From: a virus
DNA: 64,000 nt
IMG/VR virus record: IMGVR_UViG_3300035047_000236
Reading direction: 5' to 3' (one strand)
Shown here piece by piece: positions 28,401 through 52,746 of this stretch (the first letter of the stretch is position 1; every line of letters starts with the position of its first letter). A model generated the notes under the pieces. The model was not told the origin of the DNA. It saw nothing but the letters and a program-made list of their open reading frames with translations, and made no database searches. A program made the position numbers and the translations under genes.

Positions 28401-31400
28401 TACAAGAGCAGACATCAATCCCTGAAGAACCCTTATACTGCCTTCACTGCCTGATGAAAGCTCTTTTTCAAATCTTCCCTTTAGTTTTTCCATATCTTTT
28501 TCATCAGCGACACTTCTTAGTTTATTCTCTATTCTTTCTGTCTCACCTTTAATACCTGCGTCATCACCGGCACTGTAACCTCCTGCTTTCATCTCTTTGT
28601 CTAGATCCTTTACAAAAACAGACATAGTCTTTGCCAATTTTTTTGAGGCTCTATTTATAGGTTTTCCATCAACTATACCTTGTGTTACTTTTTCAAAGTC
28701 TATATCTTTTATTTTTTTATCGGCCTCTTCAAAAGATTTAGGTAATTTATCTACATTACCTTTTAGCGCTTTAAACGCAAGATAAAGGCCTGAAGAAGCA
28801 ACCATAAAGTTTCTTATATTGCTATCATCCATTCCAGCAATACTTCCTGTTCCATGAGCAACTATGGCAGTTTTAGCTAAACCACCAACTGTATCATAAA
28901 CGCCCTTCATGTTTGTTCTTTTCTCTCTAATACTTCTTAAAGCACTAATATCTCTATCTATAGAGTCAGACGACATACCTTCATCTAAGTTAGCTTTTTT
29001 ATTTACCAAGTCTTCTATTGCTTTATCTATGTTTCTTACATCTGCGCCACTTATTAAGTCTTTTACTTTGGAAAAAGTAAGTGCTATTGCTGCTGTATTT
29101 GCCATATTACCAGTACTAAACATACCTTCACTATAACCAGTCTTACTTTCTTCTACACTCTTCCTTAAACTACTTACTACTTTTTGTCCCTTCTTACTCT
29201 TTCCAGACTCTGTTATCTCGAACTCATTTATCAAACCTTCTATAGGAACACCAGCAGCACTAACTCCTTTAGAAAATGCAGTTAAAAGTTTTTTAGTATC
29301 TGCGCTGCCTTCACTACGTCCTTCCAAGAAATCTATACCACTATTTAACAACATCTCTGTTCTCTCACGTATAGTAGCATCAATTTCATTCATAAGATCT
29401 ATACCAGCACTTCCGCCTTTTGAACCCGCCTCTTCACTCAAATTTTGAAGATCTATTATTTCTTGGTTGAATTTATTTAGTTTTGGATTACTTTTAGAAA
29501 ATAAACCTTTTTTAGTATAAAATTCTTCCGGCTTAAACTCCATAAGTGAAGATTTTTTTTCTTCAAATTTTTCTTTAGTGCTAGCTCCAGTAAAAATACT
29601 AACTAACGCACTTAACCACTTATTTGATTCTTGGGCTTCAATTGTCCCATCTTTTGTAGCTTTATTTATTTCATCTAAATGTGAAGCTATAAGAACCTCA
29701 CTCTTAGTGAAACCAGACTGTTCTTGTGTCTCTTTAAGATATTTTTCAAGGTCTTTTTCATCTTTAATATTATCAATATTTACTGCACCAAAGGCAGTTT
29801 GTGCTATACCCATATCATTTATATTACTTCTTGTTTGCACTAAAGTATCTATCTGACTAATTAGACCTTTTCGTTCTTGTTCAATGGATGATATTCTTTG
29901 GGCTACTTCTGCATAAACAGATGAGCTATTCATGGCCATTTGGTGTGGACTAAGCTCGTCTATACTCTTTACTCCTAAATCTGGAGGAGCAAGTTCTTTT
30001 GGAGCGCCTTTAGTAAAACCATATGTTTCAACATAAACTTTGTTTCTTGCTTTTTCAGCATCTATTAGATTTTTTACACTTCTAGTGCTGGACTCAATAG
30101 TCTTGGCAAGAGCCTCCATCTCCTGTCTAAATTGAAATACAACAGAGTTATTTTGTATAATCCCTTGTAATTCTGCTATTCTCTCAGCGTCTTCCCCTAC
30201 TAAATAATTAGATGAGTCAGCTGCTCCTCCTCTAACAGACTCCATTATAACTGAGTACTCTTTCATGGGCTCTTTCATGTATTTAGCATAATCCTCTGCC
30301 CATCCAGATTTATACCAATCCGTTGGAGCAGAATCAACATCAGGATTAACAAACCTTCCTGAAGAAATGTTATATCCCTTTTCTGTTTGTAGAAGAGTTC
30401 CAGTGTCTATATCACTAAAAAATTTAGTACCTAAGTCTAAGTTTCTTTTATTAAGATTTTCTTTATCCAAACCTACGATGCCTGCTTCCGCTCCTGTTAT
30501 AAATGTGGCCAACTTAGTTCTATGTTCTTCAGCTTTTCTTATTATTTCATCTGTTGGGTATATGTTTTTTATACTATTGTCTAAAATATTACTCTGGCCA
30601 CCAGAGTACATCAAAGCCTTTACAAACTCACCTGTTATACTATCTACATATTTAAGAAATATCTTATTAGATTCATCTATTTCCACCATAGCTTGTTGAC
30701 CGGCTATTCTATATTGTTCTGCAAACTTATCAGTTACAGTTACAAAATCTCCAGTTTTAATTGTCGAAAAGTTGTCAAAAGGGCTCCTTTCTGACATATT
30801 TGCCTCTTTGAATCTCTCAGACGTTATATCTCCTGTAGGTTCAAGCATTCCATAAATATACTGACCTACCTTCTCATCATTAGCTATTACTGATCTAAAT
30901 ATATCTCTTTGCATTATCTGCTTACCAGTAACACCCTCTCTATTATACACATCGTTTGTTGCTGCCATAACATCATAACCTGGAATTAGTTCTTCTCTAT
31001 TAAATATAGAATTTATTTGATTTGATTTTAAACCCCTAGTGTCTATTGACTCTAATATTTTTTCAAAATCACTGTTTATATCGTCAAATGTGTTTTTTAT
31101 ACTTTCAAGTTGTTTATACATGCCATCAAGTATTGGATCAAATGCAGTAGAAAGAGGATTAGCATTTTTTGCTACTATAACCTTATTCAATTCTTTAGTA
31201 AATTCAGATAACGCTTTCTTTGGTCCAACAGATATACCCTTCTCAAGCATATCTCCTACTAAAGGAACAGATTTTGCTACCTCGTTCATAATATACTTTA
31301 CGTTTTGATTTCCATCTGTTTTAGTTAAATCTTCAGAAAATCTAACAGCTATATCTGACTCTAACATAGCTTCTTGGTATCTTCTTATATTGTTTAAATT

Positions 31401-34400
31401 CTTTATATATTTAACTGCTTCTTCATTAGTTCTATCTAAGTTTATGCCTCCATACTCAGTAACGCTTCCGATCATTGAAGGGGCATACTTTGCTACTGCT
31501 TTTTGAAAGTCCTTATCTTGTTTTTCTATGTCAGCTCCGAAAAACATAGGGCTCTTATACTCTCTTATATCTTTTAATCTATTTAATTCTTCTGGATCTT
31601 GTAGTTTTTTAAGCTCTTCTTGGGCAGTTCCTAAAGCATTGTATCTATTTATCAACTCATCTAAACTATCAATCTCTTTTTTGTTTGCCTCTATTACGCC
31701 GGCCTTTGAATCCTTTAAATCTTTAGCAGACCCTACAAAATCCTTTATTGAGCTTATTGCTTTTGGAGCCATAATTCCTAATCCCAAACCAGTTCCAAGT
31801 AAAGGACCCATGGATTTCAGTATGGACGCATGATCAGAGCCAAGGTTCTCCACTAAAGACATACCTAAATTTTCTATACCTGACCCTGCGCCTTTTGTTG
31901 CTTTCCCAACATATTTAATTGGACTTGCAACAAACGTTTCTGCTGCGGCTGCTGCTAATTGGACAGGTATTTTTGGTACAAAACTTCCAACAGTAGTAAG
32001 TTTAGATATAGAGTTTCCAACACTTTCTACAAAAGAACCAACAGCTTTTATTGGTTTGCCAGTATCACTAGCAGTTAATCCTAAAAACTTATTATAATAT
32101 CTTCCAAAAGCAAGTAAGGAATATCCTAATTTACCTAACGAACTTTCAAGATCATCAAACCCTGCACCTTTTTGTATTGAATTCAAACCAAATAGATCTG
32201 GGTCTTTCTCATCTCCAGTACCAAATAATTCATGTCCTCCTACTTTTATACCTTTAGAAAACTCCTTCTTTAGTCCAGAAAACGCTATTTTGCCTTTGTC
32301 AACTATCTGAATTAAGTTGCTTAAGACGCTTTGTCCCTTAGACACATAAGCAAAGAAAGCTGCTGCTCCTGCTGCTGCTAATTTAAATTCACTTGGTATT
32401 GCATTTATTACAGATAGGGCTCCTCTTATACCGGATAATCCCATTTTGAAACTTGGTAGTACCAACTTACCCATCTCAATCTTTAGCTCTGAAAACATGG
32501 CTTTAGTTTGTTCTAATTGCTTAGAATATGTCTTCATAAGAATTAAATTTCTTCTTTCGGCAGAACCCTTAGAATCCATACTATTTTTTACATTTCTTAG
32601 TGCTTCTGACCAGTTATCCATCAAAACTAAAACCTGATTATATTGTCTAGTTCCACCAAGGCCTTGAGCTATAGCCATTTTCTGTGCCCTAGATAGATCT
32701 CCCCACTTTTTAGATAAATCATCTAAAATATCAAAACCAGATCTCATTCCCCCTTCTTCGCCTAAAATACTTACGCCCACTTTACTTAATTCTTTAGGTC
32801 CGGTGTCAGTACCCAATCTTCTCATTATAAACCTAAGAGAAGTTCCAACCTCTTTACCTGTTTGCCTTGTAACAGAACCTATAGCTGTAACAATACCATT
32901 TAATTGATCAAATGTAAATCCTGCGTTTTTGGCAGCCGAAGCAGATTTTTTGATGGCGTCTGCTAAGTTTCCAGAGGTAATAGCTGCTTTGGACTCCACA
33001 TTACTCCAAGAATCTAAAAACCTTATAGACTCTTTACCTTCTTCTGTAAAAACTTTCATAGCAGCGGTTAATGCTTCTGTAGCATCTGTTGATTTAAGGG
33101 TGGTAATATTAGACGCTAAAACAGCAGTCTTAGTTCTATCTGTGACATCTTCCTGTGGTAAACCCTGTTGAGCAAAAACCTTCATTCCTTCCAAAACACC
33201 AGTAACTGGAACTCCGTATTGTTTTGCAAGTCCTACAGAAGTTTTTTGTAAAGAACCAAAATCAGTATTAACTGGGTTCATAACCATTTGTAATTGAGCC
33301 ATTGCTACTTCAACATCACTAATTTGATCTATGGAATCTTTTATATAATCTAATCCGCCATAAACTAAAGAAGCTGCCGCTCCCCATTTTATAACTCTAT
33401 CTATAGCCACCGAGAATGTTCTATTGCCATCAGTCATAGATTTTAATAGATCTTTTTGTCTTTTGGTGAACGAACTAACCTCTTCCCCTGTACCTCTTAT
33501 TACATCACCATACTTCATAAAACTTTCTTTTTGGTTTTCAACAACCCTCCCAGAAGGTTCAAAAACCTTTTTATCATATACAAACTTTTCTCCTGCAGAC
33601 GCCCCTCCCTTACTTTCAGGAGTAGAAAAATATCTTTCTACATTACTAATATTTCTAAGATGTAAAGCTTCCTGTTCTTCCACAGAAAGATCTTTAGATA
33701 CAGGAATAATTGATGGTCTTATTTTTTCTCCAGTTGGGTTACTGTATTTCTCTGATTCTGTATTAACATTTATCCAAACTTTTTCTAATGATTTTAAAGT
33801 TTTAAGGACGTTCTGTAAATAAGCAACCTGTTCACTAGAGTATCTATCTCCTATATCATAAGAAAGCTGTTCTCTTAAGGCATCCTTTAGTCTTGACAAT
33901 CCAGAGCTTACTTTTGAAAAATCCCAAGTTTTACCTATTTCTTCACCTGCTCTTGCTACTAACTCAGCGTCAGTGTATACATCTATAAGAGCTTTATCAA
34001 TGCCTATAAGATCCACTAAAGCTTCCCTTATAGACTCTCTTGGTATAGGAGCTTTTTCTCCTTCAAAATCCAACATCCTATTGAATATAGTTTTTAGTGT
34101 TTTATCTTCTTCTAATGGATCTGATGCTTTTTTTATTAATTCTTCTGTTGTAAGCCTTACTCCTGCTTCTTCAGCAAGTTTTGGGTGTATGTACATCCTG
34201 TCTTCTGTGTATATATCAGTTTTCTTTCCTAAATCTCCTTTAACAGAGTCTTGAAATTTCTTTACCAACCCAGAATATTTATCAAAAGACTTAGTCTGAC
34301 CAGCAACATCTCCTTCTGCTTTAAAACTTTCATATTCTCCAAACGACTCTTTTATTAAATTTACATAATAATCGCCTACAGCAATCCTATATGCTTTCCA

Positions 34401-37400
34401 AGCATTCATAAACTCATTAAAATCTATATCTCCAGAATCCTTCATTTCTGACATAACTGACGCAAACTCCGCTCCCCTAGGGCCCTCTTCTAGTGTTTTA
34501 GTTATTTCCTGCTGGATTCTTTCATTAAATTTCTTAAAACCCTCACTGTCTATATCAACACCTTGAGACCTTTGGTATCTACTTGCGTTCTGGTGTAAAG
34601 ATGTAAGTGCCTTTTCTATATGAATAGTGCCTAAACCTTCTATTACAGGCCTTGATTTAGGTTTATAGGTAAAACGATCCTCCATAGCTTCAGAGTCTTT
34701 TCTTATTGACTCAACCCTATTTCTAAAATTCTTTACATCCTCACTATTTATATACGCGTCTTCAGATGAGACATAATCGGACGATTTATATCCTACTGTT
34801 TGTCTTCTTTCTTGAGCCAAATTGTAATACTCTTTAAGAACATCAATGGCTTTATTTAGTTCATCTAACGGTAAATCTTTTTCTGGAGGCCTGCTAATTA
34901 TTTGTTCATGAGACTCTGTTTTTCCAAAAGTCTTTCCTTGTCTTATTACTTCTTCTCTTGCTGAAGAAACTGCTCTCATATCTCTTTCTAATAATTTATC
35001 GTCAAACTTATGTGATAACACAGCCGGACCTTTGTCAGGGTCAGTGCTACTATAAAAATGAGCAAATGAGTCTGCTCCTTTATTTGTTGCTGCTAAGTAT
35101 AAATTCAACTGAGAAGCTACCTCATCTAATTTGGTATTCTTTAAGTAATTTGATTCTTTACTATTTATAAATTCTTTTATTTCCTGTAAACTAGGTGTTT
35201 CCTTACCTGTTTTTTCTCTAAAAGCTTTAATAGCATCAAATAGTGCAGAAAAGTTATCATCACTTACTGTTTTAATATCTACAATATGATCTGTTATTCC
35301 TGAACCATCTTCCCTAACAACATCCATAGTTCCAGAAAACTCTCCACCTATCTCATCTACAAATTTAGGTATAGGTTTTTCTACAAAAGTATTTAGTTTT
35401 TCGCCTGTTTTACTAATCACATTTTCGCTTTTGTATTTATCTTCAAGTTTTTTATGTATAGCAGTACCAAGTAAAGATGAAGATCTGCCTATATGATTCA
35501 TATCCTCTTTATCTGAAACCATAGTCTTTACTATTTCTTCAACCTGTTTATCTGGAGTAAACTTATCTCCTACTTTCTTTGCTGCATAACCTCCTTTAAG
35601 TCCACTGGCTCTATATTTTTTTCCAAAATCACTTTCACCAATAATAGAACTTTTATCTGTACCAATAAGTTCTTCGGCCCATTTTACTTTTTCCATAAGT
35701 TCTTTAGAAATACCTTGTGGCATAACACCTACATCTGATGGAGTGACACCTATATCAGAAAATGCTGCATTTCTTGAAAACGAATCTGGGGATGCAAAAT
35801 TTAAACTTACTCCATCTGCTACTCCGACGACATAAACTGGAACAGGTTTATCTGACATTCCTTTTAAATCGAAAGATGGTGGTAAATTGGGACCCATTGG
35901 GGTTTCAGGAATACTTCCTCCTTGACTATACAGAGAATGACCAGAAGAAAGTATTCTATCAGAAGCATCTTTACTAATATAATCCTTTATCTGAGGTCTA
36001 TCTGGTTTATAAGCACCAGAAGAGGGAGCAAACTCTAAAAGAAAATCCATCTCTCCTTTTTTAGTTTCTGCGGTCCTTATAATAGTATCCATCTGGGCTA
36101 TAGCCATAGCCCTTTTCTTCATTTTATCTCTTTCTCTTTCTTTAGTCTTTTTATTTTTTTCAAACTCTCTTTTATATTCTTCTTCTGTATCATAATTTTC
36201 CCTAGATGGGTCTGGGTATTCCTCTTCCACCCTTCTTCCTATCTCATGATCAAATTCAAAATCCAGTTCTCTTATAGTTCTTTCTGTCATGCTTGGCGCG
36301 CCTACAGACCTAGCATACTTTTCTACTTTTCTTTTTATATCTTTGTAATTTTCAGGTTTTAAAACATCTTCTGTTGCTGAATGCATGGGAGCTTCACCAT
36401 AAAGTCTTTCTACAACTGGTGACGATATTCTGTCTCCTTCAACCTCCATCATTTTATTTAAACCACTTATAACCCTAGCATCATTCTTAAGATTTTTTAT
36501 AGTACTATCCACCATCTTAGAATATGTATCTCTTCTCTTTTTATCAGAATTAGAAAAATTTGATATGTCATCGTAAAGATTTTGAGAAATAGCCTTTGCA
36601 AACTTATATTTATATATTAATTTTCTGTCTGGATCATCAGCTTCTTTTGTTTTTGGGTCTATAACTCCTAACAACTCAGATGTATCTACATCCCCAAATT
36701 TTTCTTTATACTTACGTATTTGACCAGCTGGTTTAGCAGTGAAAGTTCTGTATTTATATAGTGGTGTTTCTATTTTCTCAAAAGTTTGACCTATATCTAT
36801 ACCGCCTGTTCCTAATTGTTTTCTTATTTCTGTTGAAGCATAAGCTTCAGCATCTTTATCATTTGTAATCCCTTTTATGCTTTTTGCTTCTTCAATTAAA
36901 GCTTCTCTTGCTGCATCTATAATCTGGTTTGACCACTCTATAAGATATCCTTTAAACCCTATAGAATCTACTATATATTTCTTTAACTCTTCTCTATCTT
37001 TTCCTTCCACTTTGGACATCTCGCCTCTACCTGATGCTATCTTTTTTGCATCTTCTAATATAGCACCAGTAGATAGTTTACTAAGCCTCATACCAATAGC
37101 TTTTTCATTTGATTCAGCAAACTCCTTTATATCCTTATATGACCCTTTACCCTCCTCTATTTTAGATATAAGTTTTTTTGCGCCTGGCTCACCTTTTGAC
37201 ATTAACTTGGCTATTTCTCCAGCAACAGGTACCTCTCCAGCATGTTTTACATCAAAACCTTTTTGTTGTGCAACCCTAATCAACTCGTTGGCCATGAAGT
37301 TTAGTTCTTCTCCCATATGTTTCCCTGTTACATTTAAATCAGAAGGAAATCTCTTAGCCATTTCAGGACTAAAATTATAACCGAATTCAGAGTTAATTAT

Positions 37401-40400
37401 ACCTGAACCAGCACCAATACTTCTTTCGTGTATTTTTAAAAGCCTGTTTGTTGCTTCTGTGTCTGGTCCAGTATTTATTTTAAATAATTGTGCATTTATA
37501 GTACTAAGGTATTTAGTATTAAAAAGTTCTTCCTTTATACCATTATTTATAGCCTTAGCTATATTACCTCCTAAACCTTCTAATTCATCAAGTAGATCTT
37601 TAGAGTATTTTTCTACATCTATTTCACCTTCACTATCTGTTGGAGGTTTTACATTTGATATAGCATTAAAAACTTTATCTATGTCTTCTGGACTTCTAAA
37701 TACAGATGGAATTACATCAGCTATTGCATTAAAAGGAAGTTTAGGCTCTCCTGAAGAATCTGGTGTTTTAGCTAATATATTTAATCTTTCTTGGTCACTC
37801 AAATATTCTAATTGCTCAGTAAGAAAAGGCTTTGTCATAAAACCGAAACCTTCTTCTTCTGGGAACTTTTTACTAAAAGCCAGTTGTTGCTCTGCCATAG
37901 CATATTTGCCAGTTGAACCTACCATTGCGCCATAGGTAAATTCATCCCTAAACGCTTTACTTGTAGGACCAGCAGCTGTATCAGGTGAATGAGTATATTT
38001 AAAGTGCTTTTCTATTTCTCTTCTGGCTTCAGCAGTTTTTGCAGAATGTATCTCTATCTGATCTCCATCAAAGTCTAGTTTTTGCTGTTGTGCTATATAT
38101 TTTGGTATTAACCCAGATAAGGCATTTTCAAGTTGACTAATTATGTTTAACAAATTATCTATCTTTACTTCATCTGGTTGTTCTTTTTTGTATTCTAAAT
38201 CTACCTTATCAGTTAGTGATTTTATTATAGAATCTATCTCTTTTTTGTTTGCATCAAAAGCATCAAAATCTAATTCTGGTATACCTGGGGCTGTAAGAGA
38301 GTGTTTAGCTAAATGTCGTCCTCCTTTTTCAGGTTTAAGTAATTTAGCCTCATAAGGTTGGACACTAGATATACCTGTAAAAGGATACCTTACACTCTCT
38401 ATATAAGGAGTTAGTTCCTTTCTTAAATGAATATCCATTTTTTGTTTTTCTACACTATCTTTTATTTTATCAACAAAAGGAAGTATTGACTCCCTATATT
38501 CCAACATCTCCTTTAAGTTAGAATCAACTTTAGTTGGTTTTAATAAAGGGTCTATCCTGTCTTCTTTTTTATTTACACTATATCTTTTTGTAAACTGAAC
38601 AGGAAGTTTTTCAGCATAAAAATCTGGAACACCTAATTCGTGTTGTTTTAAAACTGGTATTCCTTTCTTTTTGTGTGCTTCTATTGCCTTAGCATGTCCT
38701 TCACCTATCTTACTAATTTCTTTAGAAACATCACTTAACTTATTGAATTCATCCCCAACACCATAAGAATCTTCTGATAATATATCATTGATGGTGTTTT
38801 TAAACTCTTCAAATTCTGATGTTTTATCGACAACAGCTGTTACTGCTTTTGCCATAACAGCAGGTATTTTTCTTGTAAAAGCAAGTTCTTGTATAGAACC
38901 AGTTTTTCCTATTACTGTTGTTGCTATAGAATTATAATATTCTATCTTTGCTTTTTCCAGCGCTTTTATCTTATCTTGAATATATTTATCACTATGTTTT
39001 TGATCTACACCAAAAACCTTAGCTATTTCTCCTACCGGTGCTGGACCTATATCAGATGCTATATTCAGGGCTCCTGGTGCTTTGAATCTTTCTTTAAAAA
39101 TTTCTGGAGCATCCTCAGACGGTTTGGTGAATTGGCCTAGTAACTGATCTGCAGCTTGATCTATAGTAGATTGGTAAACCTCAGAAATAGGTTTACCTTC
39201 ATTTATCTTCTTTTGTCTAAACTTCATAACATAGTCGGCTCTAGTTACACCGGTTTTATCGTATGCTGGATTAACTTTATAATTAGAAAGAACTTTAAGC
39301 ATGGGATCTAATATTTCGTTTAGTCTTAACTCCCCCATATCACCTATATTTTCTACATATCTTCCTGTTCCACTGTCTTTGGTTATGGTTCTGGCCTCTG
39401 ATCTTAGATTAGAAACTTTACTCTTTATTAATCCAATGGTTTTAAACTTATCTTCTTCAGTTTTAGGGGAACCAGTGGTAGCCTCATCCAAGTCTTTGGC
39501 TGCAACTACTACACGATTTAATCTTCTAGATATTATATCTAAACCATACTCTCCTGCCATTGTTGGTTCAGGATATGTTGTTCTACCTATAGAGCTAGGT
39601 ACATACAAACTGTCCCTTTGTTTAGGATCTCTTGTACTAGGTATTTGAAGACTTAAAGCGCCTGGGTATTTCTCATAATCAAGTACAGTATCTTTGAAGC
39701 TTCTTGGGTCTTTTACCTTTACAGTATTACCATATCTATCTGTTTTAAATTCTGAGTCGTCTTCAAAATGACCAGTACTTTCTGTAAACCCATAAAGATC
39801 TGCTACATCTACTTTCTTGGCTGAAGATAATAATTTTTCAGCCATATCTTTTCTACTACTGTTTATGGTTTGTAAAACCTTTATATATTCCCAATGCTTT
39901 TTTGACTCTATTGGTACATCTTCTGCTACTTCCCCAAGTAATTTAGAACTTTCACCAAATATCGCAGAATAAGCTCCAAAGGCAGGAAGATTTAATCTCT
40001 CTCCCTTTATTTGTTTTTCTATATCTGTTGATGACCACTCTGCGTATTCATGAGGATCTTCAGTTATTTCAACAAATTTCGGTCCTATTAGACTTTTTCT
40101 CTCTGTACCAAACTCATCAAATATATCACTATAAAAACTGGACCTGTGCTCTAGCTCTGCTAAACTTTTTGCTTTATTTTTCAGTTTACTTATCTCTGAT
40201 TCATCTAAAACTCCACCAGATTTACGTTTTAGCATTTCAAAAATTTCTTCTTGTATTTTACCTATAGATTCTTCTTGTTTTTTAAAACCTAACGCACCAC
40301 TTATTTTATTAAGATTTAATTTTTCGTCATATTTGTCTGTAGGTACTCCAAGCATGCTCTTATATACATCTGGTTTGAATTCAGTTTCTAAAACAGTTTT

Positions 40401-43400
40401 TCCTGAACCTCCAGAACTTATAACGTTATTCATTATAGCTTCTAAATTTTCAGTCTGCAATCCCCTCTTTGCTATACCATAAGAACTAAATCTAATGTCT
40501 ATAGGTCTTTCTACATTAGGCATACCCCCTGGTACTTGTTTACTATACAAATCTTTTACCTGTGATATACCCTCAACATCTTTTTTAATATCTATATTCA
40601 TTTTAGATAAAGCATCTTTTACTTTATTAAAAAGTATTTGTTGTGCTTCAGCTTCATATTCTGGAACAACACCTAAGTTTGCATCCGTAAACATACTAAG
40701 AATAAATTTATTTCCACTCTCTATAAGTTCTTTTGATAAACTAGTATCACCTTTGTTCTCGAAAACTTCACTTAATAATTTTCCCATGCTTTTTGGCATT
40801 ATTGCTGTGCCAAGACCTGCTTTACTTCTATCTTCTTCTGGTATTATTTCAACTTTTTTATCTTTTATAATACTACCTAGTTGCTCTCCTGTCATTTCTG
40901 TAGCGCCAGACGCTAAAACAGATACACCTTTTGAACCGTATCTTGTTGTAAACTTTCGGCCATAATAATTAAAGAATGTTTCCACAACTTTAGCTATTTG
41001 AACATTTAAAGGTTTACCTCTTACAACTGTTATAGCTTTTTCAACATCTTTTATTAGTGCCTCATCTGCTCTACCTCTGTACTCTTGTTTGACACCCAAA
41101 ACTTCTTGAAACACTTTGTTTGCGTTTTCAAGACCTACCAAACGGTGGTTTTCCTTTATATCACCTACCTCACCTGTTTCTGGTGTTTTTATTTGACCGT
41201 ATTCATTGAAGAAACCCACACGTCCAAGTTTATCTGGCTGTACCATAGTTTTAACATGCTGTGTCAACACATCGGCCAACTTTCCAGACACAACTATCTG
41301 ATCTTCAAATGTGCTAGCAGTATTTCTTAGCTCTGCTATAACATTAAAACCATATCCTTGATCTCCGTGCCTTCCTGATACAATTAATTCGTGTTCCCTA
41401 GAACTTCTAAGAGAAGGTGTCTCTGTGCCTATTATTCCATCTCCAGGTCTATATGCTTTGGCTCCAGTAGTACTAGCTATATTTCTGCCCAACTGTTGAA
41501 ATTGTTTTCCAAAAGGAGCCAATTCCGCCAAAGAATCTGTATACATTTTAATACTAGTAGAATCCAAACCTGAAAGAGCTATATCATCATACTTGCCTAA
41601 TTTTCTATACTCATTTAAAGTTGATGCTTGTGTTTCTGGAACACCTAAAGATGATATAGTTGTTACATCCATTGGTATATTGCTATCCGACATACCGTAT
41701 GCTTTAAGAGCTTTTTGATTACCCATAAAATCTTTTAAATTAAGGTTTAAATCTCTTATGAATTGTTTCTGATCGTCTGCTGTGCCACCCACCCCAGGAC
41801 CATACGTCGGTGTTGACAAACTCATAAGATTTATAATTTTTTCCTGATGTGAGTATCTTCTTGGCTTACTTTTGTCTGCTATAGGAACTGTTCCTATCAG
41901 CTTATTTATAAGTGTTTCAAAATCCCTAACATTTGCATCGTATTGAGGTCTATTAGATAACTTATCTAATACATTTTTATTTTCTCCAGGTATATTTAAT
42001 AATTGGTAAATAACATCATATATATTTTTAAACTCTATTTTTTCCATACTCTTGGCTAAATCTACAGCATCCACACCTAAAGTCCTCATTTCACTTATAA
42101 GTGTTTCTACACCTACATTTCCTGATTTAAATCCCTCTGCCAAACCAGAATCCAATGTTTTATTAACCTTTGATATAAACTCTGGTGAAGATTTTTCCGG
42201 TATTTGTCCTAAGTCTTCCATTTTTTTAGCTCTGATTACAGCAGCTTTTCTGTATTGATCTACTATTTTACTTCTAACTTCTGGTCCTTTTTCAACATCT
42301 TTAGGCGTGGCCCAATCCATTAACATCTGTTCTGAAATACTTCTAACCAACTCATGGTCTCTTTCTTTTGGACGTATTCCTAATTTCTTTACACTGTGTT
42401 TTGCTACATCAAACTTACCTACAGAAAGTAACTCTTCTATCATAGACTCAAAACCAGTTTTATACGTAGCAAATTTAGGTATTACTCTTTGGCTTCCTTG
42501 TTGTGTATCAAAAACCATAGACCCAGACTCAGACATTCTTGCTGCTGGTATAGCTAATTCTCTAACTAATGGTTTCTGCTTGCCATCCTCAGTTCCTTTA
42601 GTTAAATAATCGTTTGCTATTATCTCATTAACAGTTTTCCTATATAAATCTTCTAACAACCCTTCTGAATCCAATCCCCTCATCTTTGAAACAAACTCAG
42701 GTGAAGGTTCAGTTCCTTCTTCTTTTGAAAACCTAGTTTTTATATCTAATAGTCTTTTTTTTGTCAAATCGTCTATATCAGGTACTTCCTCTATTGCTCC
42801 TTTCGACATAGTTTTAGTCCATTTTGCCATTATTTCTGGAAGCCTGTGACCAGATCTAACCATTGTAGTTTTGAATAGATTTTCTTTGTATTTTTCTATA
42901 AGTACTTTAGGATTAGACATAGCAGAATCATCTAAATTAAACTCACTTTTTAATTTACCTTTACCACCTAATGATGCCTGTAATCCTGCAATATCTGCGA
43001 TCTTAAAACTAAATTGTTTTCCTGATCTCTTCTTATTAATTCCACCAACAAGAGAAAAGTATTCTGATATATTTTGATCAGCTGCGTCTCTAACTATTGA
43101 CCAGTCAGAATCTGACGCCTTTAAACCTTTTTCAACTTTCTTTACCATGAATTTTTGAAGTTCTGCTAATGATTTTGAAAGATCATCTGCGTTTGCTTCA
43201 ACTATAAGCCTCTGAATTTCAGCTGAAGGTAAAGATTCTATCTTTTTTTGCGGAAAATCAGATTCTTCTGATGGAGATATAACTGTTTCTTTGTAAGAGT
43301 ATTCTTCACCCTTACCTTTTCTGTAAGATCTTGCGCTTGAAGCTTTATATGTACTACCTTTGACATAACTATCCCCTACTGAAGATATGGGTTTTTTTGA

Positions 43401-45392
43401 CTTAATAGTGTCATTAAATATCTTTTCTACATCATCATTATAATTAGAATATAAAATTTCTCTAATATTTTTTATTTTAGACACAAACCCAGGATCAACA
43501 GCTACATTACCTCTTTCTGACATTCCTCCTATGGAACCAATTAATTTACGAAAACCTTCAAAATCATCTTCGAAAACATCTAATGGATCTTCTAAAGGTG
43601 TTAACACTTTTCTTAATTCACTAATAGTGCTTATTTTTTTATCACCTTTTAGAGTCCTTGGCTCATCCATTGTACTATATTTAAATCTTACATTATTGTT
43701 ATTAATGTAATTTATAATGTCAGAGACAGCTTCCATTAATTCGTTTATATTTTTTTCTATTTCATCATCAGAGCTTTTACTTGTATAAGATCTAGAAGGA
43801 ATATAAGATTTTAATTTATCAGTTTTTATCTTATTATCATTAATCCAAGATTTTGCTGCCTCTTTTGTATCCTCAGATTTTTTTCGAGTAGAAGATATTA
43901 CTTTATTATCTTTTGCCCAAGACTTTATAGAGCTTTTTATTTCATCAGAAGATTTTGGTTTAGAAGTTTGTCTTCTTCTACTTGCTGCTTCAGTTCTACA
44001 AACATCACTACAATATTTTGCGTTTGGAGCTTTAGACGTAAACTCTGTCCCACAAACTTCACAAATTATTCGTCTTCTACCGCCTCCAGAAGAACTAGAA
44101 GGTATTGACACATTTTTTGGGGGTTTTGGTGGTTTTGGTGGGGCTGTAGAGGTACTTACTGTACTTATTTGATCTTGATTACCTACTGCTGCCTTTTTTT
44201 CTATATCTCCAACAACATTTGTAATATTGGATAGAGATTTACTTAGAACTTTTTCCCTTTTACTATAACTTTCAGAAAGTTTTGGTAAAAATGTATGTTT
44301 TGCAGTATCTTTTGTTTCTTCGTATTTAGATGAACTATCTGATGATATAACAGATTTTAATTCCTTAACTAAAGTATTTAGGGAAGATAAATCTATTTTT
44401 TCAACATCTTTAACACTACTAAGTTGATTTATAAGCTTATCAACAGCAGAAATAACTTCTGTATATGGTGCAGATTTCTCTATAAGTTTATCTATAGTCT
44501 TTATTTGTTTTGAGTCTGCTAATTGAGGAACTGCTTTTTTTACAGCTTCGGAAACCATAGAAGCCATATCTATAGACACAGTTGCAGGAGCAGACATCAT
44601 ATGTCTAGACATAGCCCCTGTTTTAGAAAATAAGCTTTTCTTAAACCCTTCAGCAGTTTCTAAAAAACCCTCTGTATTTATACCGTGGGTTTCTTTAAGA
44701 ACCCTAGCTTGTGTAAAAATACTTGCAAAATTACTTTTTAAATTTGCTAATTCTGCAATAGTTTCTTTTAATAATCTACCAAAAGCTAAAAACTCTTTTA
44801 TATCTAGGCTGCCGCCACTATGACGCAACTCTCCCATCTTTTCCATGGTCTGTAGAACCTTAAAAGCAGCACTAGACATGCTCTTAGAAGCACTATACAT
44901 TTCATTTATTATATTATGTGTTTCTTTAGGTAGGACAGAATCGCTAGACTTTATTTTTTTATCAAGAGAGCTTATCAATTCTGAAGGTATATTAACACCC
45001 TTTTCCTGTGCTCTATTAGAAACTACTCTAAGTGACTCAGATAAAGATTTTCTTACAGTAGCATCAACAACATCTTTTCCTGTAACAGAAGAGGTTGTGT
45101 CTCCTTTACTCCTTAGGTTTGCAAAGGCTGTCTCTAACTCTCTTCTAAATACACCAGTAAAATCTTCCTTAAACCCTTTATCATTGCTGTATCCTTGTTC
45201 ACCAAAGGACTTGGCTATTTGGTTCAGCAAAGAGTTTTTTTCTTTGTTTGATGCTATTAATTCTGATATAGCTTGGGCTAATTTATTAAAAATTAGTCGA
45301 TCTTTTGCTTCTAACCCACTATTTTTGTTTGTAGATGTGGTAGATTGATTGATATTGACAACTGATTCAATACCTATAATGTGGTCTGTCAA
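22452..45392 (-). CDS. giant tail tape measure protein (7,646 aa) fused to a two-barrel virion RNA polymerase, a PD-(D/E)XK nuclease and a zincin-like peptidase
   Basis: Uninterrupted ORF with TTG start and GGGAGG RBS. Position after tube and chaperones. TP901-type TMP core plus ordered RNAP beta/beta-prime motifs (see sub-features). Confidence 0.9.
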   Translation of the reverse strand: MTDHIIGIESVVNINQSTTSTNKNSGLEAKDRLIFNKLAQAISELIASNKEKNSLLNQIAKSFGEQGYSNDKGFKEDFTGVFRRELETAFANLRSKGDTTSSVTGKDVVDATVRKSLSESLRVVSNRAQEKGVNIPSELISSLDKKIKSSDSVLPKETHNIINEMYSASKSMSSAAFKVLQTMEKMGELRHSGGSLDIKEFLAFGRLLKETIAELANLKSNFASIFTQARVLKETHGINTEGFLETAEGFKKSLFSKTGAMSRHMMSAPATVSIDMASMVSEAVKKAVPQLADSKQIKTIDKLIEKSAPYTEVISAVDKLINQLSSVKDVEKIDLSSLNTLVKELKSVISSDSSSKYEETKDTAKHTFLPKLSESYSKREKVLSKSLSNITNVVGDIEKKAAVGNQDQISTVSTSTAPPKPPKPPKNVSIPSSSSGGGRRRIICEVCGTEFTSKAPNAKYCSDVCRTEAASRRRQTSKPKSSDEIKSSIKSWAKDNKVISSTRKKSEDTKEAAKSWINDNKIKTDKLKSYIPSRSYTSKSSDDEIEKNINELMEAVSDIINYINNNNVRFKYSTMDEPRTLKGDKKISTISELRKVLTPLEDPLDVFEDDFEGFRKLIGSIGGMSERGNVAVDPGFVSKIKNIREILYSNYNDDVEKIFNDTIKSKKPISSVGDSYVKGSTYKASSARSYRKGKGEEYSYKETVISPSEESDFPQKKIESLPSAEIQRLIVEANADDLSKSLAELQKFMVKKVEKGLKASDSDWSIVRDAADQNISEYFSLVGGINKKRSGKQFSFKIADIAGLQASLGGKGKLKSEFNLDDSAMSNPKVLIEKYKENLFKTTMVRSGHRLPEIMAKWTKTMSKGAIEEVPDIDDLTKKRLLDIKTRFSKEEGTEPSPEFVSKMRGLDSEGLLEDLYRKTVNEIIANDYLTKGTEDGKQKPLVRELAIPAARMSESGSMVFDTQQGSQRVIPKFATYKTGFESMIEELLSVGKFDVAKHSVKKLGIRPKERDHELVRSISEQMLMDWATPKDVEKGPEVRSKIVDQYRKAAVIRAKKMEDLGQIPEKSSPEFISKVNKTLDSGLAEGFKSGNVGVETLISEMRTLGVDAVDLAKSMEKIEFKNIYDVIYQLLNIPGENKNVLDKLSNRPQYDANVRDFETLINKLIGTVPIADKSKPRRYSHQEKIINLMSLSTPTYGPGVGGTADDQKQFIRDLNLNLKDFMGNQKALKAYGMSDSNIPMDVTTISSLGVPETQASTLNEYRKLGKYDDIALSGLDSTSIKMYTDSLAELAPFGKQFQQLGRNIASTTGAKAYRPGDGIIGTETPSLRSSREHELIVSGRHGDQGYGFNVIAELRNTASTFEDQIVVSGKLADVLTQHVKTMVQPDKLGRVGFFNEYGQIKTPETGEVGDIKENHRLVGLENANKVFQEVLGVKQEYRGRADEALIKDVEKAITVVRGKPLNVQIAKVVETFFNYYGRKFTTRYGSKGVSVLASGATEMTGEQLGSIIKDKKVEIIPEEDRSKAGLGTAIMPKSMGKLLSEVFENKGDTSLSKELIESGNKFILSMFTDANLGVVPEYEAEAQQILFNKVKDALSKMNIDIKKDVEGISQVKDLYSKQVPGGMPNVERPIDIRFSSYGIAKRGLQTENLEAIMNNVISSGGSGKTVLETEFKPDVYKSMLGVPTDKYDEKLNLNKISGALGFKKQEESIGKIQEEIFEMLKRKSGGVLDESEISKLKNKAKSLAELEHRSSFYSDIFDEFGTERKSLIGPKFVEITEDPHEYAEWSSTDIEKQIKGERLNLPAFGAYSAIFGESSKLLGEVAEDVPIESKKHWEYIKVLQTINSSRKDMAEKLLSSAKKVDVADLYGFTESTGHFEDDSEFKTDRYGNTVKVKDPRSFKDTVLDYEKYPGALSLQIPSTRDPKQRDSLYVPSSIGRTTYPEPTMAGEYGLDIISRRLNRVVVAAKDLDEATTGSPKTEEDKFKTIGLIKSKVSNLRSEARTITKDSGTGRYVENIGDMGELRLNEILDPMLKVLSNYKVNPAYDKTGVTRADYVMKFRQKKINEGKPISEVYQSTIDQAADQLLGQFTKPSEDAPEIFKERFKAPGALNIASDIGPAPVGEIAKVFGVDQKHSDKYIQDKIKALEKAKIEYYNSIATTVIGKTGSIQELAFTRKIPAVMAKAVTAVVDKTSEFEEFKNTINDILSEDSYGVGDEFNKLSDVSKEISKIGEGHAKAIEAHKKKGIPVLKQHELGVPDFYAEKLPVQFTKRYSVNKKEDRIDPLLKPTKVDSNLKEMLEYRESILPFVDKIKDSVEKQKMDIHLRKELTPYIESVRYPFTGISSVQPYEAKLLKPEKGGRHLAKHSLTAPGIPELDFDAFDANKKEIDSIIKSLTDKVDLEYKKEQPDEVKIDNLLNIISQLENALSGLIPKYIAQQQKLDFDGDQIEIHSAKTAEARREIEKHFKYTHSPDTAAGPTSKAFRDEFTYGAMVGSTGKYAMAEQQLAFSKKFPEEEGFGFMTKPFLTEQLEYLSDQERLNILAKTPDSSGEPKLPFNAIADVIPSVFRSPEDIDKVFNAISNVKPPTDSEGEIDVEKYSKDLLDELEGLGGNIAKAINNGIKEELFNTKYLSTINAQLFKINTGPDTEATNRLLKIHERSIGAGSGIINSEFGYNFSPEMAKRFPSDLNVTGKHMGEELNFMANELIRVAQQKGFDVKHAGEVPVAGEIAKLMSKGEPGAKKLISKIEEGKGSYKDIKEFAESNEKAIGMRLSKLSTGAILEDAKKIASGRGEMSKVEGKDREELKKYIVDSIGFKGYLIEWSNQIIDAAREALIEEAKSIKGITNDKDAEAYASTEIRKQLGTGGIDIGQTFEKIETPLYKYRTFTAKPAGQIRKYKEKFGDVDTSELLGVIDPKTKEADDPDRKLIYKYKFAKAISQNLYDDISNFSNSDKKRRDTYSKMVDSTIKNLKNDARVISGLNKMMEVEGDRISSPVVERLYGEAPMHSATEDVLKPENYKDIKRKVEKYARSVGAPSMTERTIRELDFEFDHEIGRRVEEEYPDPSRENYDTEEEYKREFEKNKKTKERERDKMKKRAMAIAQMDTIIRTAETKKGEMDFLLEFAPSSGAYKPDRPQIKDYISKDASDRILSSGHSLYSQGGSIPETPMGPNLPPSFDLKGMSDKPVPVYVVGVADGVSLNFASPDSFSRNAAFSDIGVTPSDVGVMPQGISKELMEKVKWAEELIGTDKSSIIGESDFGKKYRASGLKGGYAAKKVGDKFTPDKQVEEIVKTMVSDKEDMNHIGRSSSLLGTAIHKKLEDKYKSENVISKTGEKLNTFVEKPIPKFVDEIGGEFSGTMDVVREDGSGITDHIVDIKTVSDDNFSALFDAIKAFREKTGKETPSLQEIKEFINSKESNYLKNTKLDEVASQLNLYLAATNKGADSFAHFYSSTDPDKGPAVLSHKFDDKLLERDMRAVSSAREEVIRQGKTFGKTESHEQIISRPPEKDLPLDELNKAIDVLKEYYNLAQERRQTVGYKSSDYVSSEDAYINSEDVKNFRNRVESIRKDSEAMEDRFTYKPKSRPVIEGLGTIHIEKALTSLHQNASRYQRSQGVDIDSEGFKKFNERIQQEITKTLEEGPRGAEFASVMSEMKDSGDIDFNEFMNAWKAYRIAVGDYYVNLIKESFGEYESFKAEGDVAGQTKSFDKYSGLVKKFQDSVKGDLGKKTDIYTEDRMYIHPKLAEEAGVRLTTEELIKKASDPLEEDKTLKTIFNRMLDFEGEKAPIPRESIREALVDLIGIDKALIDVYTDAELVARAGEEIGKTWDFSKVSSGLSRLKDALREQLSYDIGDRYSSEQVAYLQNVLKTLKSLEKVWINVNTESEKYSNPTGEKIRPSIIPVSKDLSVEEQEALHLRNISNVERYFSTPESKGGASAGEKFVYDKKVFEPSGRVVENQKESFMKYGDVIRGTGEEVSSFTKRQKDLLKSMTDGNRTFSVAIDRVIKWGAAASLVYGGLDYIKDSIDQISDVEVAMAQLQMVMNPVNTDFGSLQKTSVGLAKQYGVPVTGVLEGMKVFAQQGLPQEDVTDRTKTAVLASNITTLKSTDATEALTAAMKVFTEEGKESIRFLDSWSNVESKAAITSGNLADAIKKSASAAKNAGFTFDQLNGIVTAIGSVTRQTGKEVGTSLRFIMRRLGTDTGPKELSKVGVSILGEEGGMRSGFDILDDLSKKWGDLSRAQKMAIAQGLGGTRQYNQVLVLMDNWSEALRNVKNSMDSKGSAERRNLILMKTYSKQLEQTKAMFSELKIEMGKLVLPSFKMGLSGIRGALSVINAIPSEFKLAAAGAAAFFAYVSKGQSVLSNLIQIVDKGKIAFSGLKKEFSKGIKVGGHELFGTGDEKDPDLFGLNSIQKGAGFDDLESSLGKLGYSLLAFGRYYNKFLGLTASDTGKPIKAVGSFVESVGNSISKLTTVGSFVPKIPVQLAAAAAETFVASPIKYVGKATKGAGSGIENLGMSLVENLGSDHASILKSMGPLLGTGLGLGIMAPKAISSIKDFVGSAKDLKDSKAGVIEANKKEIDSLDELINRYNALGTAQEELKKLQDPEELNRLKDIREYKSPMFFGADIEKQDKDFQKAVAKYAPSMIGSVTEYGGINLDRTNEEAVKYIKNLNNIRRYQEAMLESDIAVRFSEDLTKTDGNQNVKYIMNEVAKSVPLVGDMLEKGISVGPKKALSEFTKELNKVIVAKNANPLSTAFDPILDGMYKQLESIKNTFDDINSDFEKILESIDTRGLKSNQINSIFNREELIPGYDVMAATNDVYNREGVTGKQIMQRDIFRSVIANDEKVGQYIYGMLEPTGDITSERFKEANMSERSPFDNFSTIKTGDFVTVTDKFAEQYRIAGQQAMVEIDESNKIFLKYVDSITGEFVKALMYSGGQSNILDNSIKNIYPTDEIIRKAEEHRTKLATFITGAEAGIVGLDKENLNKRNLDLGTKFFSDIDTGTLLQTEKGYNISSGRFVNPDVDSAPTDWYKSGWAEDYAKYMKEPMKEYSVIMESVRGGAADSSNYLVGEDAERIAELQGIIQNNSVVFQFRQEMEALAKTIESSTRSVKNLIDAEKARNKVYVETYGFTKGAPKELAPPDLGVKSIDELSPHQMAMNSSSVYAEVAQRISSIEQERKGLISQIDTLVQTRSNINDMGIAQTAFGAVNIDNIKDEKDLEKYLKETQEQSGFTKSEVLIASHLDEINKATKDGTIEAQESNKWLSALVSIFTGASTKEKFEEKKSSLMEFKPEEFYTKKGLFSKSNPKLNKFNQEIIDLQNLSEEAGSKGGSAGIDLMNEIDATIRERTEMLLNSGIDFLEGRSEGSADTKKLLTAFSKGVSAAGVPIEGLINEFEITESGKSKKGQKVVSSLRKSVEESKTGYSEGMFSTGNMANTAAIALTFSKVKDLISGADVRNIDKAIEDLVNKKANLDEGMSSDSIDRDISALRSIREKRTNMKGVYDTVGGLAKTAIVAHGTGSIAGMDDSNIRNFMVASSGLYLAFKALKGNVDKLPKSFEEADKKIKDIDFEKVTQGIVDGKPINRASKKLAKTMSVFVKDLDKEMKAGGYSAGDDAGIKGETERIENKLRSVADEKDMEKLKGRFEKELSSGSEGSIRVLQGLMSALVLTTAQNYLDNKQEVDRQISGAEKTGSDQLEDLYYIFKKEPAIFKGFMEAAESGDGEEVQDFSKKLESMVISQGKERESYTDQINKTLETIGEKIGEFDGTLNELKSFANEVQTLSEVIKSLRMIELDHVKALNSIDINSMYGFPTSSGDLLRGFSGELRMPKNERDMSVQERMFSSSSEVFKDAFNTFYKFQRSYDTQFEALKVLSDKRISKEFDLAALQKQGNVSKDEENLRIYEISRLKKLENEAKNALDGTRESTIELGKSFKDLSSLSSYIYKLKDSLDDLNSTAISSSVLGSKNYNTNISKLLGGGHPLASVSVSPEQQRMASRVGVSLISGESTAKDVERAEILDKLETSKDPKEKMELSYRLSELDSKYENLVFTKEQTERNRLFETTQSPYVKLQEDLFRLLESGEITNQNDVIDIRQIISTIGRELESSVQVVSKQQKLDEIKSQYEKGDLDKTKYNIRKEYYEKSGLDYFYKGVDGGFLDKYDEIIVRFKEALQATSEEGVMYKAISQPIVTQLEKANGYLQTISLFYADKSNADNDPGSRTAPGPAPFREKDALGTTKYYDYVEDHAGPLSGIPLSREDQIRRDYLYPGFTSISDTKVGKFASNVVKDFVGYKLPAGTGFEHEPSTETISSVTKRAFSFVAGKISDFIDYFPEAYDRQKEHVSYMEENRDLYSTNHINIAKRRPIYGEGYNEYLKVDDKPLKVEDKPLEVEDKVLKARLETTEVITKDHVERKASGGRIFGAGGPREDKVPAYLSPGEFVIRSHTAQKLGYNTLDHINKKGTIPGFAEGGTVYKSIDEKNKYLSEKYPGVNFNFKDNDYFNLDQYNKLAPYIEKILDKYPEIQEGLTIGLFDGNLPEGYNLEDFKHSTKFGAHAASSRIKNSDGSINRESKVLLNSSSLFDKNSPLRTWDSYDYDPISTLMHEFGHRKDFIDQRYSPEKRISVLDRLWGIPEENLTPEARGKSNEERYAEIFALHEMFGDPDRIDAPGELKESITEFHGSKWSAIDPRSKIEGLPSFAAGGVVEDPYVITIDNIYDRFMKSKYVNDPEYAITRVREGLGALFERFANDEINKNNMRIDDVIKQAALGTQKSSNKNNIRSFIGRSDGINEVSGRYLDRNIGNNTPSIGNITEGGIRSFVGDASGVFEVSEKDFNDRSYSLMRTENEGRLESNSSGYDWAINSHKDVSNRIIEEEREKANNRLNRMLKKDLMFKTKMIERSNKQKQLEDLVRSGNVKDLTSSFNEITGFDTYKDIDTGASFGKARKGFYTPTGPFFMDAGINPTTDIKTKTNRLEAPSLYMPEKTDFGFSEYLPLVNDYPSDYVKFFNKAVHIRRYTDMLRGKISKTGKPFGELLKSGNKDALDLIDKRDALMSARQMIDMMSRGENIYTNPDLMKKVTVPSKISPLSKTTIGADGNVYNFEEGVPLKGKSNDVLNEIEYAKGFDGTVEYESKIQNFLDDAVIAENYLRSMLYGTKSNKRSPGVGVPISGAKSYAGPPQTVGLHNRDITNRLDGPQKIGLYNNVSERSSLEEQGIGTSGSEALKDGYLLRKNQPAASDSRSNMENYMSTLRNLTGSDLVYKSIIKDLESTEPDLKKYLANNYKDKDSIMGLFKDNISINNIAKDYNASPGMVRKAMHEILREFRSEFSEGGKVLSNILHNHPNNGSIPVFHNGGFVDKTGPIFAQKGEFILPKFFGDGGLVNSSKETISANLVSGSLNKSSIKLDGAEVLNELSRIKLRVDDKKLDVDGSRLINDLNNVELRVKDTKVGVEDKTVSIDSSSLLNELRNLTLKVEDKKLGVEDKTVSIDSSSLLNELRNLTLKVEDKKLGVETTNIKVDTQNVANQISSAITNAINSSKVAVDTTNIKVDSVGASARDAISEAIVSMDNKFLSSIAVVDRKINNLKEEIDNKIGSKVDEKLSISVSDINNRIGNVEYRLSDLYNNVTSSISRLAADANSIRSLAHQSLNSVNNL
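22888..23070 (-). repeat. tandem 90-bp duplication in the TMP C-terminus (30-aa unit KTVSIDSSSLLNELRNLTLKVEDKKLGVED)
   Basis: 22888-22977 and 22978-23067 differ at only one base that I could find (gagctg vs gagcta). Degenerate copies continue to about 23210. Confidence 0.9.
25325..25995 (-). other. HEXXH zincin-like metallopeptidase domain inside the TMP
   Basis: STLMHEFGHRKDF (H6597 at 25604) followed by NEERYAEIFA. Bracketed by PGFAEGG and PSFAAGG. Confidence 0.7.
32460..33420 (-). other. tape-measure core domain (TP901/PhageMin_Tail type), about aa 3990-4310
   Basis: LAKQYGVPVTGVLEGMKVFAQQG...ATEALTAAMKVF...NLADAIKKSASAAKNAGFTFDQLNGIVTAIGSVTRQTGKEVGTSLRFIMRRL. Confidence 0.9.
34950..35500 (-). 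other. Cas4/RecB-like PD-(D/E)XK nuclease domain inside the TMP
   Basis: LGTAIH (H3313), VEK, SGTMD, VDIKT (D3372/K3374) and QLNLY (Q3428) in canonical order. Confidence 0.8.
37200..38920 (-). other. RNA polymerase beta-prime-like region (DPBB with catalytic DFDGD)
   Basis: GKTGSIQELAFTRKI (38865-38909), LKQHELGVPDFYAEKL (38604-38651), RYP (38382-38390), DFDGD (38061-38075, D2440-D2444). Left boundary approximate. Confidence 0.88.
39960..41900 (-). other. RNA polymerase beta-like region (second DPBB)
   Basis: FEDQIVVS (41301-41309 for FED), GRKFTTRYGSKGV (40923-40961), PIDIRFSSYGIAKR (40464-40505), GERLNLPAFGAY (39969-40004). Confidence 0.85.
43990..44075 (-). other. C4 zinc finger in the TMP N-terminal region
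   Basis: RRIICEVCGTEFTSKAPNAKYCSDVC, preceded by the linker APPKPPKPPKNVSIPSSSSGGG. Confidence 0.75.
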
Positions 45393-46457: not shown

Positions 46458-46469
46458 GGGGTAACTAAA

Positions 46470-47198: not shown

Positions 47199-47200
47199 CT

Positions 47201-47452: not shown

Positions 47453-47494
47453 AACCTTTAATTCCTTCCTTTTCTTTATTTATATAAAACCCTT

Positions 47495-47532
47495 TTCAAA
47501 GTGGTGTTGGGGTAAATTAATACCCCAACCAC
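47495..47532 (-). terminator. intrinsic terminator-like hairpin after the tail tube gene
   Basis: Stem gttggggta/taccccaac (47506-47514 / 47521-47529) extended by gtgg/ccac. Short U-run follows on the minus strand. Confidence 0.6.
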
Positions 47533-47550
47533 ACTTCCTATTATATCATA

Positions 47551-49143: not shown

Positions 49144-49172
49144 ATTTAATTAATTCCTCCTATTTATTTTTA

Positions 49173-52733: not shown

Positions 52734-52746
52734 GATTTTTCCTTCA

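Follow-up and report, generated by a model that had tools for sequence, protein, structure and literature searches.

Within a 64,000-nucleotide stretch of viral DNA, IMG/VR record IMGVR_UViG_3300035047_000236 (hereafter the window), lies the gene for a giant tape measure protein (TMP) of 7,646 amino acids. We think it quite likely that residues ~1320-2900 of this protein are a single-chain, DNA-dependent RNA polymerase (RNAP) of the two-barrel type, carried in the TMP of a large phage and with a role in the virion. The phage itself was probably of the large, long-tailed siphovirus type. One characterised TMP-fused virion RNAP was already known, from a small group of Thermus phages. What is new is a second, apparently independent TMP–RNAP family, far larger and from ordinary metagenomic phages of low guanine–cytosine (GC) content.

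The gene (22452..45392, minus strand) is a single uninterrupted open reading frame (ORF) with no internal stop, in a window of 32% GC whose large ORFs lie nearly all on the minus strand. A 100% identical copy of the protein is found on JGI contigs of 59.6 kb and 187 kb. The chain begins with a variable, zinc-ribbon-bearing region, passes through a conserved block into the beta-like and beta-prime-like modules of the polymerase and, after a variable middle, reaches the TP901-type tape core, which gives way to a long helical tape; C-terminal motifs make up the last region. An original prediction, made by a model from the letters and a list of ORFs, had placed a complete two-barrel RNAP at 37200-41900, equivalent to residues ~1164-2731. 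As we delimit it, the polymerase occupies residues 1320 to ~2900 (window 36693-41435).

Motifs, barrels and the predicted active site

The beta-like module (39915..41435, minus strand; residues 1320-1826) holds the first double-psi barrel with its FEDQ motif (E1363/D1364), followed by GxKxxxxxGxKG (K1480/K1488) and then by PIDIRFSS and GERLNLPAFGAY. The beta-prime-like module (36693..39857, minus strand; residues 1846 to ~2900) opens with a clamp-like N-terminal part and continues into the second double-psi barrel, which is split by two helical inserts and carries RYP at 2335 and DFDGDQxxxH at 2440-2449. It ends in a 51-residue helix and a helical C-terminal part. The DFDGD metal-binding triad, D2440/D2442/D2444, maps to 38061..38075 (minus strand) and is assigned from the motif and from conservation in the family. 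Translation of the ORF puts all eight motifs of the original prediction at the residues it gave: FEDQIVVS at 1362, GRKFTTRYGSKGV at 1478, PIDIRFSSYGIAKR at 1630 and GERLNLPAFGAY at 1797, then GKTGSIQELAFTRKI at 2162, LKQHELGVPDFYAEKL at 2248, RYP at 2335 and KLDFDGD at 2438. The counterparts it listed for E. coli, residue numbers included, also agree with the actual K-12 sequences, which have FEDSILVS at 812, GDKMAGRHGNKGV at 1063, PVDIVLNPLGVPSR at 1093 and GQRFGEMEVWAL at 1267 in rpoB, and GKQGRFRQNLLGKRV at 333, LRLHQCGLPKKMALEL at 361, RAP at 425 and NADFDGD at 458 in rpoC. The motifs come in the order beta then beta-prime, the order of the rpoBC operon.

How much weight can short motifs bear in a protein of this length? 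Written as degenerate DNA, D[FY]DGD matched once in the 64-kb window and never in 100 shuffles, and D[FY]DGD is kept in all 41 of the giant homologues described below. An alignment of 36 full-length homologues, 31-52% identical to the query and with a mean column identity of 38%, has 76 invariant positions among the 1,200 of its first sequence. All nine predicted catalytic residues (E1363/D1364, K1480/K1488, R2335/P2337 and D2440/2442/2444) are among them and unchanged in 36/36; H2449, K2638 and H2717 are likewise unchanged in 36/36. On the beta-like side, the invariant columns include F1362, E1363, D1364, Q1365, G1478, K1480, G1486, K1488 and G1489; on the beta-prime-like side, they include R2335, P2337, D2440, D2442, G2443, D2444 and H2449. 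The first barrel supplies the two conserved basic residues, K1480 and K1488, that the two-barrel RNAP superfamily requires. The superfamily's other hallmark, a barrel bearing a DxDxD magnesium-binding triad, is found in the invariance of the triad, the alignment to PF00623 and the superposition of a designed barrel, both given below.

Profile alignments point the same way. For these, 35 proteobacterial rpoB and 41 rpoC genes were turned into profiles, which were compared with the giant protein by local hhalign. Five claimed motif pairs were recovered, all collinear, at E values from 0.007 to 0.48. The stretch GRK...GSKG aligned with beta 1063-1168 (E 0.011) and FEDQ with beta 811-831 (E 0.042); DFDGDQ..H aligned with beta-prime 460-479 (E 0.007-0.009), LKQHELGVP with beta-prime 359-373 (E 0.07-0.09) and GKTGS with beta-prime 325-347 (E 0.4-0.5). 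Three control regions of the same protein scored E 0.21 or worse; residues 1-1330, searched for an N-terminal half of beta, and 2900-3650, searched for RNAP signal, yielded neither and serve as the negative controls. Against the single E. coli RpoB and RpoC sequences, the DFDGDQxxxH stretch alone aligned, and not significantly. The rarity of the DFDGD pattern, the invariant columns and the collinear profile alignments together argue that the motif match is not a matter of chance.

Structure prediction brought the fold into view. Two AlphaFold2 models were made from the family alignments, one of residues 2130-2950 (predicted local distance difference test score, pLDDT, 81.3; predicted template modelling score, pTM, 0.74) and one of residues 1320-2519 (pLDDT 75.7, pTM 0.53), and both were compared exhaustively with 48,161 Protein Data Bank (PDB) representatives by VIA-align, of which we considered the best 50 matches. 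For residues 2130-2950, these were led by the largest subunits of multisubunit RNAPs (Pol III, Pol IV and that of African swine fever virus), along with the non-virion enzymes of phages AR9 and phiKZ. The designed double-psi barrel 7dww superposes on 86/86 residues with a root-mean-square deviation of 1.9-2.0, and the superposition of QDE-1 spans residues 27..1150 of the 1320-2519 model (pTM 0.53), that is, both barrels. In a Foldseek search of the PDB, 49 of the top 50 matches were again RNAP largest subunits, 48 of them bacterial beta-prime and one yeast Pol II Rpb1. Foldseek against BFVD found only weak matches to RNAPs of nucleocytoplasmic large DNA viruses (NCLDVs), plus a probable member of our family annotated 'minor tail protein'; against AFDB clusters, it returned only noise. 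The barrels that had been predicted from motifs were in this way recovered, along with much of the beta/beta-prime scaffold. To judge from the models, the polymerase would resemble a C-terminal half of beta linked to a beta-prime, in the order first barrel with its two lysines, clamp, second barrel with the DFDGD magnesium site, and helical C-terminal part. They also place a helical or disordered insert of ~100 residues between FEDQ and GxK in the first barrel and a 51-residue helix at residues 2609-2659 that contains the invariant K2638; K2716-H2717, also invariant, comes later. Structural alignments to the largest subunits pass through their bridge-helix and trigger-loop ranges.

The fusion, its family and a free-standing relative

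The tape measure core (28089..33524, minus strand; residues 3957-5768) matches phrog_4211, tail length tape measure protein, at E 6e-50 and 3e-52. Within it lies PF10145 (TP901-type; window 32652-33233, minus strand; residues 4054-4247), the sole Pfam domain above its cut-off in the giant protein, at 70.2 and 74.5 bits against 33.2. The original prediction had such a core starting about 1,500 residues further along the same chain; PF10145 begins ~1,600 residues after DFDGD. Conservation in the protein peaks in the tape core, and the polymerase block is also among the best conserved parts. The nearest cultured relatives of the tape core are the TMPs of 160-170-kb Bacillus siphophages, at 26-30% identity and E values down to 1e-37. 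The polymerase is absent from those TMPs, by our search of cultured phages. Together, the low GC content and the Bacillus-type tape core suggest a host in Bacillota.

The fusion recurs. A word-index search confined to giant proteins turned up 41 sequences homologous to the polymerase region. Nearly all have 6,800-7,950 residues and every one carries PF10145; they derive from JGI, ENA, NCBI and Logan assemblies, the longest contig measuring 318 kb. With the polymerase region as query, HMMER was run exhaustively against 1.84 billion representatives and gave 110 clusters (at 50% identity), and all clusters among the matches listed were giant proteins of the same kind or their fragments; cellular RpoB and RpoC were not recovered. 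IMG/VR holds 44 loci with the polymerase region. Overall, there are ~60 giant proteins of the same continuous architecture, the full-length ones ranging from 6,595 to 7,998 residues (median 7,470). Relatives of the source phage have genomes of ~230-265 kb, and in two relatives the upstream synteny is kept: genes of ~520, 82, 190-245 and 335 residues, then the giant gene.

Shorter members of the family were considered as a natural split of polymerase and tape, a reading we rejected. One (P0046, 3,077 residues) is truncated by the end of its contig. The other (P0054, 4,042 residues; L141:6001-18446) has its stop 317 bases before the contig end, and an overlapping downstream ORF runs on to that end. 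The break falls inside the tape core and is likely a frameshift or an assembly indel, with a natural split as the alternative.

A second polymerase turned up in the relatives. In two related genomes of 228-238 kb, the DFDGD pattern matched another gene, a free-standing beta/beta-prime fusion: 1,178 residues at L134:5001-8534, on an IMG/VR contig of 238 kb, and 1,085 residues at L135:5335-8589, on an IMG/VR contig of 228 kb. Each contig also encodes a giant TMP–RNAP. The two free-standing enzymes are 43% identical to each other and have the motifs NFEDQ, KLTNxxxNKGV, VRYP, LDFDGD and QKHG; with the TMP-embedded polymerase they share the set NFEDQ, K...NKGV, VRYP, LDFDGD and QKHG. They are much smaller than the giant proteins, not fused to a TMP, and come out as RNAPs each time they are searched: they match families that PHROG labels 'RNA polymerase beta subunit' (E 2e-6) and PDB beta chains (E 7e-4) and, in contrast to the embedded region, exceed the Pfam cut-offs (PF00562, 24.9 bits; PF00623, 27.3 bits). 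The TMP-embedded region is homologous to them, with an hhalign probability of 92.8% and an E value of 4e-7 over 270 columns that begin at PIDIRFSS and end where the beta-prime part starts. The free-standing enzyme is probably a non-virion partner of the TMP-fused one. No relatives of it were found among cultured phages. Nor did the related genomes yield a sigma-70 region 2; a T7-type RNAP was not found in five of them, by a search whose control was uninformative.

The Thermus precedent and the rival readings

Several results weigh against the polymerase reading. Residues 1100-2900 have no match in Pfam or PHROGs, and searches of the PDB with the polymerase region, by phmmer and by profile (gp96 chains of the Thermus phage included), found no polymerase. 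When a short piece was searched, the top Pfam match at the DFDGD site was PF00623 (Rpb1 domain 2), with 17.2 bits and E 0.0065 against a cut-off of 25.3 bits; no direct sequence search was significant for RNAPs. Foldseek's E values against the PDB are 0.16-0.17 or worse, so that the ranking agrees and the significance does not. The first barrel is modelled at a pLDDT of only 50-60, in the two-barrel model with a pTM of 0.53, so the model does not fix the geometry of the active site. A residue-level assignment of bridge helix and trigger loop was dropped, the restricted profile alignment not being significant. The N-terminal half of beta (lobe and protrusion) has no profile match in residues 680-1330; of the 'complete' polymerase that was predicted, both barrels, the clamp and the C-terminal part of beta-prime stand, and the N-terminal half of beta went undetected. 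The free-standing enzyme is present in two of ten related contigs and was not found in the other eight, all ten being incomplete. Finally, there is the matter of size. A folded polymerase of ~1,600 residues cannot fit in the lumen of a tail tube, so it must be unfolded there or else sit in the neck or head.

The Pfam beta-family models do not match the giant protein, and no beta or beta-prime domain model rises above its cut-off. tblastn and megablast searches of cultured phages with the polymerase region returned no match. In favour of the polymerase reading, PF00623 matches the giant TMP ORFs of four out of five related genomes, the best at 22.4 bits (per-genome E 1.6e-5).

The precedent that the original prediction invoked exists as it was described. 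Thermus phage P23-45 (Oshimavirus) gp96 is a TMP-fused virion RNAP of 5,002 residues, of which 327-1124 form the active enzyme, with DFDGD at 779-783 (Chaban et al. 2024, PMC10770324). This flat, clampless polymerase is DNA-dependent and responsible for pre-early transcription. It groups with the non-virion gp64 among the reduced polymerases of phages, plasmids and RNAi, a clade separate from the one that unites multisubunit RNAPs with fused forms derived from them (PMC10770324). The giant protein shares with gp96 an N-terminal two-barrel RNAP, the DFDGD triad and a C-terminal tape in one polypeptide, and its proposed role would be the same, transcription of the first genes to enter. P23-45 also has a free-standing paralogous RNAP in the same genome, whereas in our family this holds for two relatives only. 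The two also differ. The gp96 polymerase has ~800 residues and that of the giant protein at least 1,600, starting ~1,300 residues into the chain rather than at 327. The giant protein's enzyme possesses a clamp-like domain, and its beta/beta-prime motifs extend beyond the barrels, retained much as the original prediction had supposed when it called them cellular-like. PF10145 is missing from gp96, which has an M23 peptidase instead.

Multisubunit beta and beta-prime, whether cellular or from NCLDVs or the phiKZ and AR9 non-virion enzymes, are the best structural matches for both halves of the polymerase and share with it a collinear set of motifs: FEDx, GxKxxxxxGxKG, GKxG...RK, LxxHxxGxP, RxP and DFDGDQxxxH. 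Unlike them, the giant protein has both halves in one chain, fused to a tail protein. Its first barrel also differs, with a helical insert, modelled at low confidence, where multisubunit beta has the sandwich-barrel flap. Other single-chain enzymes (crAss-like phi14:2 gp66, the virion RNAP (vRNAP) of N4, and those of QDE-1/YonO type) are not part of a tape measure, and the N4 vRNAP is of an unrelated fold class. The Iyer–Aravind survey of jumbo phages describes no TMP-fused RNAP family, and no second such family appears in the titles or abstracts of six other works citing PMC10770324.

Did the giant family arise on its own? We lean, by a little, towards a fusion independent of the Thermus case, in widespread uncultured phages of ~230-265 kb, which would have joined a cellular-type RNAP with clamp to a TMP of the Firmicute-siphophage type, a convergent way of coupling entry to transcription in which some members would keep the paralogue for the second stage. 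The original prediction had offered a separate lineage or an independent fusion, and that idea gains ground. The other possibility is one ancient TMP–RNAP fusion that has diverged past recognition, so that gp96 and the giant proteins share a lineage; the equal order of parts, the DFDGD form of the triad and the free-standing paralogue in some genomes all speak for it. We regard it as doubtful, if a serious contender. By hhalign, the two halves of the polymerase match gp96 at a probability of 0.8-1.1%, and BLAST finds no similarity between the tapes (BLASTP E ~1). In the structural comparisons, gp96, gp64 and crAss gp66 are outside the top 50 for either model, and multisubunit-type RNAPs lead. 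With no profile similarity to gp96, a different TMP family and a clamp in place of a flat enzyme, independent fusion is the more economical account.

The remaining alternatives concern what the region is or does. It could be a true two-barrel homologue with another job, be it RNA-dependent synthesis (as in QDE-1), replication priming, polymerising DNA (as in PolD) or working mainly as a motor to haul DNA in. This seems unlikely to us, since both the structure and the extra-barrel motifs match DNA-dependent beta/beta-prime best, clamp included, and the sole characterised TMP fusion, gp96, is a DNA-dependent transcriptase (PMC10770324). Might it instead be a relic that has lost catalysis and serves structurally, spacing or plugging the tail or neck? 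The poorly modelled first barrel and the large helical inserts that break up both barrels could be read that way, but nine catalytic-type residues plus H2449, K2638 and H2717 do not change across the 36 homologues, at 31-52% identity, and the block they sit in is among the best conserved of the protein; we consider a relic very improbable. Least credible of all is that the motifs arose by chance or that separate genes were fused by an assembly artefact, a chimera being among the outcomes the original prediction named as fatal to it. Nothing beyond the weak statistics of single searches recommends that view. The same continuous architecture in ~60 proteins from independent JGI, ENA, NCBI and Logan assemblies rules a chimera out, and the conserved upstream synteny and the structural matches to RNAPs point the same way.

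If the giant protein is indeed a virion polymerase fused to a tape, a sequence of events suggests itself by analogy. The tape part would be built into the virion tail and expelled at infection, as siphophage tape measures are. The polymerase, being N-terminal, would be the last out of the tail and so would arrive next to the leading end of the DNA. There it could transcribe the first genes without the host enzyme, and it may possibly help to draw the genome in. Where the free-standing paralogue is present, its gene would perhaps be among those first genes, and its product would take over later, like gp64 in P23-45.

If this picture is true, phages would have converged on a general means of linking DNA entry to early transcription that does not depend on the host. 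An independent origin would imply a strong selective reason to tie a polymerase to the protein that opens a channel into the cell. It would also make a compact RNAP, in one chain and with a clamp, available to structural and mechanistic work; in build, the polymerase of the giant-TMP family is far closer to the cellular enzymes than gp96 is. Proteins annotated 'tape measure' or 'minor tail protein' may conceal core information-processing enzymes.

Flanking segments and neighbouring genes

Directly upstream of the polymerase in the chain is a conserved block (41436..43295, minus strand; residues ~700-1319), delimited from the conservation profile. It has no match in Pfam, the RpoB/RpoC profiles or the ESM Atlas (queried with residues 700-1340), and it could be a divergent N-terminal half of beta, a promoter-recognition module or one that binds DNA ends. 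Closer to the N terminus is a CxxC...CxxxC zinc ribbon (43869..44087, minus strand; residues 436-508) of the HNH-associated type by PHROG match (E 8.5e-7 and 7.7e-6); it varies within the family, with a column occupancy of ~0.6.

Between the polymerase and the tape core lies a candidate PD-(D/E)XK nuclease segment (window 34950-35500; residues ~3298-3481), found in ~60-70% of family members. It accounts for what became of the 'extra enzymes' that the original prediction gave the protein: one weak PHROG exonuclease match (E 0.004) speaks for them, and Pfam has no match for the segment. Beyond the long helical tape, a conserved C-terminal TMP motif (25989..26177, minus strand; residues 6406-6468) matches PHROG TMP families at E 2e-8 to 5e-7, and downstream of it is an HEFGH sequence (window 25590-25604, minus strand; residues 6597-6601) in a region with no Pfam peptidase match. 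Near the C terminus of the TMP, a 27-residue unit occurs twice in tandem without a single change (residues 7448-7504; window 22881-23051), its copies 30 residues apart and embedded in a stretch of similar 'KVEDKKLGVE'-type repeats.

The genes around the giant ORF are for the most part strangers to the databases. Of 20 neighbouring large ORFs (window 1-22443 and 45453-64000), 18 have no PHROG match at E 0.001, and Pfam recognises PKD and Big_1 domains alone, in two ORFs. Scanned in full against Rfam at gathering thresholds, the window gave no family, and no tRNA genes were found. The structural module is that of a phage lineage with essentially no cultured representatives. The tail gene block also contains, a few genes upstream of the giant ORF, a gene for an HNH/homing endonuclease of 467 residues (window 49173-50576, minus strand), which matches phrog_559 at E 4e-53.

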